The translations under genes and the position numbers were made by a program. The notes below the pieces were generated by a model. That model had not been told where the DNA came from and searched no databases. It worked only from the letters and a program-made list of their open reading frames with translations. A stretch of DNA of 39,892 nt from a virus. The stretch is from UHGV virus genome UHGV-0038300, one strand, 5' to 3'. Positions 36,033-36,441 of this stretch are shown here, piece after piece (position 1 is the first letter of the stretch; every line of letters begins with the position of its first letter).

Positions 36033-36174
36033 GTGTGCTGCTAAGGCACTGGAGCAAATGGTCAGGATGGTACTTATTCCTGGCCTCTGTTTCAGCATGG
36101 CTTTATCTGCTGGCATTAATTTTCAGAGAGGGTTGGATTAAGTGAGAAAGTTAAGCCGACTTGAAAAATATCAC

Positions 36175-36441
36175 ATGAATAAGGTTTCAATGCGCAGTCC
36201 GTCAAAGATTGTCGCCGTTACTCCTGCGGCGATAGAGATCGAAAAACGCGCGATTGAAAGAGAGAAAAAAGGGCAGTTCCGCATTGCCGCTCACCTTTGG
36301 CTTCAGTGTATGGATGTTGCTTCTGGTGATGTTGAACGTGCAAGGATCGCGGTTCGCAGGGACCAATGTATCACAAAAGGTAACGGCCTTCGCCGTGGCG
36401 ACTATAGCGGCATAGGATGTTGCGGGGTGGTTTATGAATAA
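36175..36441 (+). CDS. PerC-like small transcriptional regulator (tentative)
   Basis: Segment ...AIEREKKGQFRIAAHLWLQCMDVA...ERARIAVRRDQC... resembles the PerC/Pch family core; start codon uncertain (GTG 36142 or ATG 36175). Confidence 0.4.
   Translation: MNKVSMRSPSKIVAVTPAAIEIEKRAIEREKKGQFRIAAHLWLQCMDVASGDVERARIAVRRDQCITKGNGLRRGDYSGIGCCGVVYE

Follow-up and report, generated by a model that had tools for sequence, protein, structure and literature searches.

We identified a gene of the PerC family in the early-left operon of a temperate podovirus prophage and, with a probability of roughly 0.55, we read it as a core early gene whose product would be made on derepression and would modulate H-NS or a transcription factor for phage development. 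The label "PerC transcriptional activator" implies virulence regulation, yet the subfamily to which this protein belongs has only the core helices. The label alone is no ground for classing such a gene among virulence or lysogenic-conversion factors.

A Conserved Coding Gene of epsilon15-Like Phages

The window, by which we mean the whole 39,892-nucleotide stretch of viral DNA that was analysed (UHGV-0038300), is a phiV10/epsilon15-like temperate podovirus (Uetakevirus) prophage, and its site is the 3' end of guaA. Between 35700 and 38400 it shares 95-98% DNA identity with phiV10, the O157 typing phages 9 and 10, ZX5, TL-2011b, and others, and the first 700 bases of this segment share 78-80% identity with epsilon15, SPN1S, and Tyrion. 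The gene under study lies in this segment:

36142-36441, + strand: PerC-family gene; 99-aa ORF with GTG start and TAA stop, orthologous to PhiV10p34 and epsilon15 gp31

An earlier note on this DNA, written from the letters alone, had drawn a small ORF at these positions, and its limits proved exact, with a GTG-to-TAA frame on the + strand that encodes 99 aa. The match to PHROG 868 ("transcriptional activator") spans residues 1-99 of 99 (E = 1.6e-61). We aligned the window gene with its phiV10, epsilon15, SPN1S, and Tyrion counterparts and computed dN/dS by the Nei-Gojobori method, which gave 0.08-0.12 at dS >1.5 against the orthologues of epsilon15, SPN1S, and Tyrion. A ratio this low at such a dS shows that the ORF encodes a protein and that purifying selection on it is strong. 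A random ORF or a decayed, functionless remnant, to which the short length, the GTG start, and the disagreement of annotators over the start (99, 88, or 83 aa) might point, is already refuted by this ratio at saturating dS, by conservation of the whole length including the first 11 codons and of the start overlap, and by the full-length PHROG 868 match.

The GTG start shares four nucleotides (GTGA) with the TGA stop of the upstream gene, which encodes a 38-aa membrane protein, and a purine-rich AGAGAGGG lies ~10 nt 5' of the GTG. The corresponding start codon of epsilon15, SPN1S, and Tyrion is ATG, with the identical 4-nt overlap. The overlap of stop and start implies that the PerC-like gene is probably translationally coupled to the 38-aa gene. 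Shorter starts have been annotated, giving 88 aa in RefSeq phiV10 (from an internal ATG) and 83 aa in the PGAP annotation of E. coli genomes. These appear unsupported because conservation does not extend to the internal Met start codons (at residue 12, epsilon15, SPN1S, and Tyrion have Leu), and we therefore prefer the 99-aa coordinates as the best-supported start on this comparison.

A DNA search found the gene in 535 of 5426 complete E. coli genomes. Every one among the E. coli matches listed bears the RefSeq label "PerC family transcriptional regulator," and the strains among them include APEC, the neonatal-meningitis isolate IHE3034, environmental isolates, and O157:H7. By protein search, 36 of 50,697 phage records carry the gene, all of them full-length copies in epsilon15-like phages, with hosts in E. 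coli, Salmonella, Enterobacter, and Klebsiella. In phiV10, epsilon15, Tyrion, and SPN1S alike, the PerC-like gene follows an AlpA-like gene and the gene for the 38-aa membrane protein, in that order. The window gene combines full-length similarity to PHROG 868 with a gene order 3' of recE/recT-type genes, which places it in the Uetakevirus early-left group. Judged by sequence and gene order, the PerC-like gene is a conserved core early-left gene of epsilon15/phiV10-type temperate podoviruses.

The PerC annotation itself is already public, as it is attached to phiV10 p34 ("identified by similarity: PF06069"), to genes of the O157 typing phages and further phage records, and to RefSeq entries in E. 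coli. We found no experiments on the subfamily in the literature on phiV10, epsilon15, SPN1S, SPC32H, and Uetakevirus, and no PADLOC defence-system model matched the PerC-like protein.

Position and Control in the Early-Left Operon

We assigned the promoter and operators from consensus scans and by comparison with the epsilon15 annotation. The surrounding features are as follows:

32846-33430, + strand: prophage repressor gene with two HTH domains (PHROG 8, 12107, and other repressor families; annotated repressor in epsilon15)
33451-33470, + strand: predicted intrinsic terminator 3' of the repressor gene (8-bp stem with 6 G-C pairs, then a T run; annotated in phiV10)
33487-33503, no strand: operator-like palindrome ATTACCTAATGGGTAAT, 5' of the -35 hexamer
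33522-33550, + strand: candidate early-left promoter, TTGACA-17 nt-AATTAT (consensus scan, 10/12 matches)
33549-33565, no strand: second operator-like palindrome ATTACCTCAACGGTAAC, overlapping the end of the -10 hexamer
33584-34038, + strand: two small genes
34035-34856, + strand: RecE-type exonuclease
34853-35734, + strand: RecT
35784-36032, + strand: AlpA-family (excisionase/regulator-like) gene (Pfam Phage_AlpA, 24.2 bits against a cut-off of 21; PHROG 66; synteny)
36029-36145, + strand: 38-aa membrane-protein gene (PHROG 17484), whose TGA stop overlaps the PerC-like GTG
36470-37537, + strand: DGQHR/DndB-like gene (Pfam DndB, E = 1.5e-46; TIGR03187 DGQHR, E = 1.4e-56)
37534-38181, + strand: MT-A70 family DNA methyltransferase (Pfam MT-A70, E = 1.2e-21; PADLOC MTase_II)
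about 38178-38372, + strand: DUF1382 gene
38376-39626, - strand: integrase, convergent

Both palindromes carry the half-sites ATTACC...GGTAAT, as in the annotated repressor sites of epsilon15 (e.g. ATTACCAAAATGGTAAT). That phage has three annotated repressor operators at the equivalent place, and the equivalent promoter position lies between operators. The predicted terminator at 33451-33470 separates the repressor transcript from the early-left operon. On the + strand, the consensus scan marked no promoter-like site other than 33522-33550 from the repressor gene to the PerC-like gene. The same scan of the + strand from 33550 to 38400 detected no further promoter or terminator, including any belonging to the PerC-like gene itself that would have marked it as an independently expressed accessory gene. 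Between recT and the AlpA-like gene lies a G+C-rich hairpin (35743-35761), but it lacks a U tract and its z-score is only -1.3. The AlpA-like gene is a conserved neighbour two genes upstream of the PerC-like gene.

The placement of the gene in the early-left operon by the earlier note is borne out by this layout, as the gene lies 3' of an operator-flanked promoter-like site with no terminator or promoter in between. The note had further expected expression mainly after derepression, which fits the operator-flanked site and the terminator of the repressor gene.

The PerC-like gene has a G+C content of 48%, the same as its flanks. The DGQHR/DndB-like gene that follows it has 34-39% G+C, is absent from phiV10, and occupies the same junction in SPN1S. 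It is clearly an insert, and it marks the junction as an insertion hot spot. In phiV10, the methyltransferase gene lies directly 3' of the PerC-like gene and overlaps it.

A PerC Core with Its Own Termini

The earlier note had tentatively likened the ORF to the PerC/Pch family and named an HMM search as the check. We ran that search, and the likeness holds: Pfam PerC (PF06069) matched at 30.1 bits, above its curated gathering score of 22.6 (E = 6e-7), with aa 35-80 of the window protein aligned to profile positions 5-50 of 90. By BLASTP, identity is 40% both to EPEC PerC, over 60 aa (E = 2e-10 in this single pairwise comparison), and to a Pch of group 1 type encoded by an O157:H7 prophage, over 40 aa (E = 1e-6). 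The matching region is the following:

36244-36381, + strand: conserved PerC core, aa 35-80, helices 2-4 of the model (PF06069 match and alignment columns)

We then compared 41 sequences, namely the window protein, EPEC PerC, O157 Pch, and 38 distant relatives drawn from the subfamily profile. All 41 match PF06069. Across the alignment (window numbering), A49, R73, and C76 are invariant and A37, E41, R47, R48, A50, W53, and R66 are nearly invariant. The window protein keeps nine of these ten positions, plus G44 and A70, so that its core residues are A37, E41, G44, R47, A49, A50, W53, R66, A70, R73, and C76. The sole missing conserved residue is R48, which is Ile in the window protein and in most of the subfamily (RRAA to RIAA). 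A count over 11 such core positions gives 10 present.

The full PerC/Pch architecture was not found. The C-terminal segment of the profile (positions 51-90) is unaligned, the C-terminal 25-45 residues of PerC/Pch have no counterpart in the window protein, and only a helical core of ~45 aa is common to both. The subfamily has its own 33-aa N-terminal segment (L-x-K-Y-H ... V-A-V-T-P-A-A) and its own short C-terminal tail (YSGIGCCGVVYE; conserved pattern Y-S-G-I-x-C-x-G-V-V-Y-D). A subfamily profile of 43 members, searched against 1.84 billion representative proteins, matched ~72 clusters at E <=0.001 and only three at E <=1e-30. On these counts, the full-length subfamily appears to be narrow.

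PerC-domain genes occur in several settings. In lambdoid prophages, those of group 1 pch stand alone, with the lysis genes on one side and terminase on the other, and one lies 3' of a primase gene in a satellite-like element. PerC proteins of ~140 aa, which join an N-terminal domain to the PerC core, are encoded in lambdoid early-right operons directly 5' of genes for a D12 methyltransferase and RusA. A few sequences in the alignment have an N-terminal region that matches winged-helix or MarR-type models. These settings suggest that the PerC core may serve as a portable module for interactions, and that the virulence regulators may have branched off from ordinary phage genes and specialised.

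Predicted Structure and the ANR Family

The AlphaFold2 model, computed from the 43-sequence alignment, has a mean pLDDT of 76, with 85-91 in the core, and consists of four helices (6-18, 28-43, 46-59, and 63-82) and a disordered tail. A sequence search of solved structures returned nothing below E ~1, and Foldseek against the PDB returned only weak MIT/TPR-like helical-bundle matches (E >=0.5). These PDB fold matches to the model are consistent with a generic helical bundle and are uninformative on function. Against predicted viral structures, the best Foldseek fits were 60-aa proteins, one of them named "ANR family transcriptional regulator," with target-normalised TM-scores of 0.87-0.88 and an rmsd of ~1 A, but with E values of 0.14-1.2, which are not significant.

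Since 30 of the 41 aligned PerC-family sequences cross-match the NCBIfam model ANR_neg_reg (NF033650), PerC and ANR look like branches of one superfamily at the level of sequence profiles. This cross-matching also favours the most credible of the alternative explanations, in which the protein would be an ANR-type anti-activator that binds AraC/XylS-family activators and/or H-NS and lowers their regulons as Aar does, "activator" being a misnomer. The window protein matches the ANR model with an E value of 3.4e-5, the viral fold matches include the ANR-named protein, and a PerC-annotated repressor of the LEE provides a precedent (PMC11773190). However, its score of 23.6 bits lies below the curated cut-off of 32, and helix 3 reads I-A-V-R-R-D-Q-C, that is, A70-x2-R73-x2-C76, which is the PerC spacing and contains no Trp. 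The ANR signature has a helix-3 Trp (W43-x3-R47-x3-C51) in a three-helix protein of <10 kDa (PMC4983702), and the window protein, with 99 aa and four helices, is larger. ANR genes typically accompany an AraC-family activator (PMC4983702), and a protein family scan saw no AraC-type gene in 30.5-39.9 kb of the window. We rejected membership of the ANR family on the score and on the absence of the ANR helix-3 Trp and spacing, and by its sequence features the protein is filed as PerC-type, not ANR. An ANR-like mode of action is doubtful but stands ahead of the other alternatives, which we rank in the order of a role tied to excision or the methyltransferase, a virulence regulator, and, last, the refuted non-functional ORF.

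Proposed Function

In the reading that we favour, removal of the prophage repressor, on infection or induction, would lead to synthesis of the PerC-like protein. By analogy with its characterised relatives, the protein would be a small, all-helical protein-binding module, and its target would be a nucleoid protein, for which H-NS is the best precedent, or a transcription factor. The resulting modulation would tune transcription to the needs of phage development. Where a host has virulence loci, a change in their expression would be incidental to this role and not the conserved function.

The relatives offer two mechanistic models. Pch, whose mechanism is the best studied in the family, activates LEE1 by relieving silencing by H-NS, StpA, Hha, and YdgT and lowers H-NS occupancy (PMC4764244). 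Aar has no apparent DNA-binding ability but binds AggR and H-NS, and mutation of its conserved helix residues abolishes its activity (PMC4983702, PMC5570504). Several points count against an H-NS or transcription-factor model for the window protein. The analogy is with relatives that are 30-40% identical over 45-60 aa. The protein has Ile at position 48 in place of Arg and lacks the C-terminal half of PerC/Pch, and its partner or activity may therefore differ. The fold searches gave no significant match (all E >0.1).

A more pointed proposal, which we put forward tentatively and consider unlikely as it stands, is that the Uetakevirus PerC-like protein antagonises H-NS-type silencing or a host activator, as the phage would require for efficient lytic expression, and that induction shifts the LEE, curli, or other H-NS-silenced loci. 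If this were true, LEE-positive lysogens, for example O157:H7 with phiV10-type prophages, would undergo such a shift in the part of the population in which the prophage is induced, whether spontaneously or through the SOS response, and prophage induction would be linked to virulence expression through a core rather than an accessory phage gene. Antagonism of H-NS would also make the gene a widespread example of counter-silencing by temperate phages, and the PerC/Pch virulence regulators might derive from ordinary phage early genes.

Alternative Roles

The fixed synteny of the gene and its likely translational coupling with the AlpA-like and membrane-protein genes could instead indicate a role linked to its neighbours. 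In such a role the protein would serve, as cofactor or regulator, either excision (together with the AlpA-like protein) or the DNA methyltransferase encoded downstream. Phage-inducible chromosomal islands likewise combine AlpA genes with genes of the PerC family (PMC11773190, PMC6092414), the phiV10 gene overlaps the start of the methyltransferase gene, and the ~140-aa relatives in lambdoid early-right operons lie directly 5' of a D12-class methyltransferase. However, adjacency in mosaic phage genomes is weak evidence, differing inserts break the methyltransferase junction in epsilon15, SPN1S, Tyrion, and the window, and a 76-aa relative in the satellite-like element has no methyltransferase nearby. 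We did not adopt a functional link between PerC and the methyltransferase, as the adjacency is recurrent but the inserts are variable and the satellite-type context lacks it. We know of no biochemical precedent for a PerC-type cofactor of excision or methylation, and we regard a role of this kind as improbable.

The earlier note had also suggested a lysogenic-conversion regulator, which would act as PerC or group 1 Pch does and activate the LEE (ler/LEE1) or other host virulence loci. PerC activates LEE1, and activation of LEE1/ler gave the PerC family its name. Besides the homology to PerC and Pch, the suggestion can draw on the prophage-borne nature of the pch genes themselves and on the presence of phiV10-type prophages in O157:H7 genomes. 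The SOS response enhances the expression of group 1 pch, and a gene expressed on induction can therefore matter for virulence (PMC6265319).

Our analysis did not support this suggestion. The gene is a core gene in all 36 phage records, and these include phages of Salmonella, Klebsiella, and Enterobacter. To our knowledge, those three genera lack the LEE, as do most hosts of Uetakevirus. Because the gene is kept in phages of LEE-less genera, LEE regulation is not its conserved function. Among the E. coli genomes listed are APEC, neonatal-meningitis, and environmental strains. The protein lacks the C-terminal half of PerC/Pch and has Ile in place of R48, and the gene has flank-like G+C, no detected promoter of its own, and a coupled place in an operon, whereas group 1 pch stands alone. 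Lysogeny by ZX5, whose corresponding region has 97.6% DNA identity with the window, left host growth, biofilm, stress response, adherence, and virulence unchanged (PMC9782041).

The behaviour of other family members also argues against it, as PchD, PchE, and the satellite-island PerC-like proteins do not activate the LEE. Only group 1 Pch does so, while PchE acts as a repressor of csgD and curli and the effect of PchD is small (PMC6265319). EcCIMP1_025, a PerC-annotated protein of the island EcCIMP1, represses LEE1 (PMC11773190). LEE1 fusions did not respond to the PerC-like proteins of two further islands, EcCIEDL933 and EcCICFT073 (PMC11773190; see also PMC6092414). Since one of these island proteins represses and two have no effect, family membership does not predict regulatory direction. 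A dedicated lysogenic-conversion role is unlikely, and direct activation of the LEE or other virulence loci in the manner of PerC or group 1 Pch seems to us quite improbable.

Comparison with Known Systems

PerC of EPEC (WP_000405638, 89 aa, plasmid pMAR2/EAF) aligns through its residues 5-64 with aa 34-91 of the window protein, and the two share the motif A-x3-E-x2-G-x-Y/F-R-x-A-A-x2-W ... R ... A-x2-R-x2-C. EPEC PerC has RRAA where the window protein has RIAA, lacks the 33-aa N-terminal extension of the window protein, and has a C-terminal segment of its own (aa 65-89) that the window protein lacks. It is also plasmid-borne, within the perABC operon, whereas the window gene sits in the early-left operon of a prophage.

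Group 1 Pch proteins (PchA/B/C type, 104 aa), from the lambdoid prophages of EHEC O157:H7, belong to the same Pfam family, have the same core, and are likewise prophage-encoded. Their genes stand alone between the lysis genes and terminase, in contrast to the coupled position of the window gene inside the early-left operon, and their long, basic C-terminal tail is absent from the window protein.

Members of the ANR family, such as Aar of EAEC, are likewise small and all-helical, with a related N-terminal signature of A, E, A, and W on one helical face. They differ in having three helices and a mass of <10 kDa, compared with the 99 aa and four predicted helices of the window protein. Phage-inducible chromosomal islands (e.g. 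the one carrying EcCIMP1_025) also contain both PerC-family and AlpA-family genes (PMC11773190, PMC6092414). The island PerC-like genes are on satellites, 3' of the primase gene, whereas the window gene is in a phage early-left operon.

The closest counterparts are the orthologues in related phages. PhiV10p34 (YP_512289) is 98% identical over the full 99 aa, and epsilon15 gp31 and SPN1S_0035 (PHROG 868) are 77% identical over the full 99 aa. The window differs from phiV10 in having the DGQHR/DndB-like gene between the PerC-like gene and the methyltransferase, an arrangement that is SPN1S-like rather than phiV10-like. PhiV10p34, epsilon15 gp31, and SPN1S_0035 all have the same operon position and start overlap as the window gene, and the gene itself is nearly unchanged.

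Start codon of the PerC-like gene

Public annotations place the start of the PerC-like gene at three positions in the window, 36142, 36175 and 36190. These correspond, respectively, to a 99-aa protein (epsilon15-style annotation), an 88-aa protein (the RefSeq annotation of phiV10) and an 83-aa protein (PGAP annotation of E. coli genomes). Based on comparative data, we favor the 99-aa form, with its conserved 4-nt overlap, as the probable product.

Other features of the window

Several further features lie in the same stretch:

34035-35734, RecE-type exonuclease and RecT, two overlapping ORFs of 273 and 293 aa
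35743-35761, G+C-rich hairpin between recT and the AlpA-like gene (GCGGCGC-CACGC-GCGCCGC)
36470-37537, + strand, DGQHR/DndB-like gene
38058-38372, DUF1382 gene, 104 aa from a GTG in the mechanical ORF list
39819-39892, prophage insertion site, corresponding to the 3' end of the host's guaA gene

The window end was matched by all of the E. coli genomes (5426/5426) because its last ~74 bases are the 3' end of guaA. In the DUF1382 ORF, the domain is limited to aa 41-100, and annotated homologues start at an ATG near 38178 that overlaps the methyltransferase stop. The hairpin has no U tract and a folding z-score of only -1.3; in epsilon15, a stem-loop at the corresponding position is annotated as "transcriptional pausing". 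RecE and RecT, two ORFs in the window, are annotated as one fusion protein (PhiV10p37) in the RefSeq entry for phiV10.

Genomic neighborhood of PerC-family genes

Other PerC-family genes were present in three further sequences:

L009:454-882 and L010:3744-4163, genes for ~140-aa relatives in which the PerC core is preceded by an N-terminal domain
L014:463-1050, two tandem PerC-family genes on a short metagenomic contig

Both ~140-aa relatives lie in lambdoid early-right operons, directly 5' of a D12-class DNA methyltransferase and RusA. PerC-like genes repeatedly adjoin methyltransferase genes, in phiV10 as well, though not universally. In the window, the inserted DGQHR/DndB-like gene (34-39% G+C) separates the PerC-like gene from that for the MT-A70 methyltransferase. 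The insert was identified by Pfam DndB (E = 1.5e-46), TIGR03187 (E = 1.4e-56) and PADLOC (DndB). Its product occurs without other dnd genes and adjoins an orphan methyltransferase. Unlike the window, phiV10 does not carry this gene, while Salmonella phage SPN1S and several hundred E. coli prophages have a DGQHR gene at the same junction.
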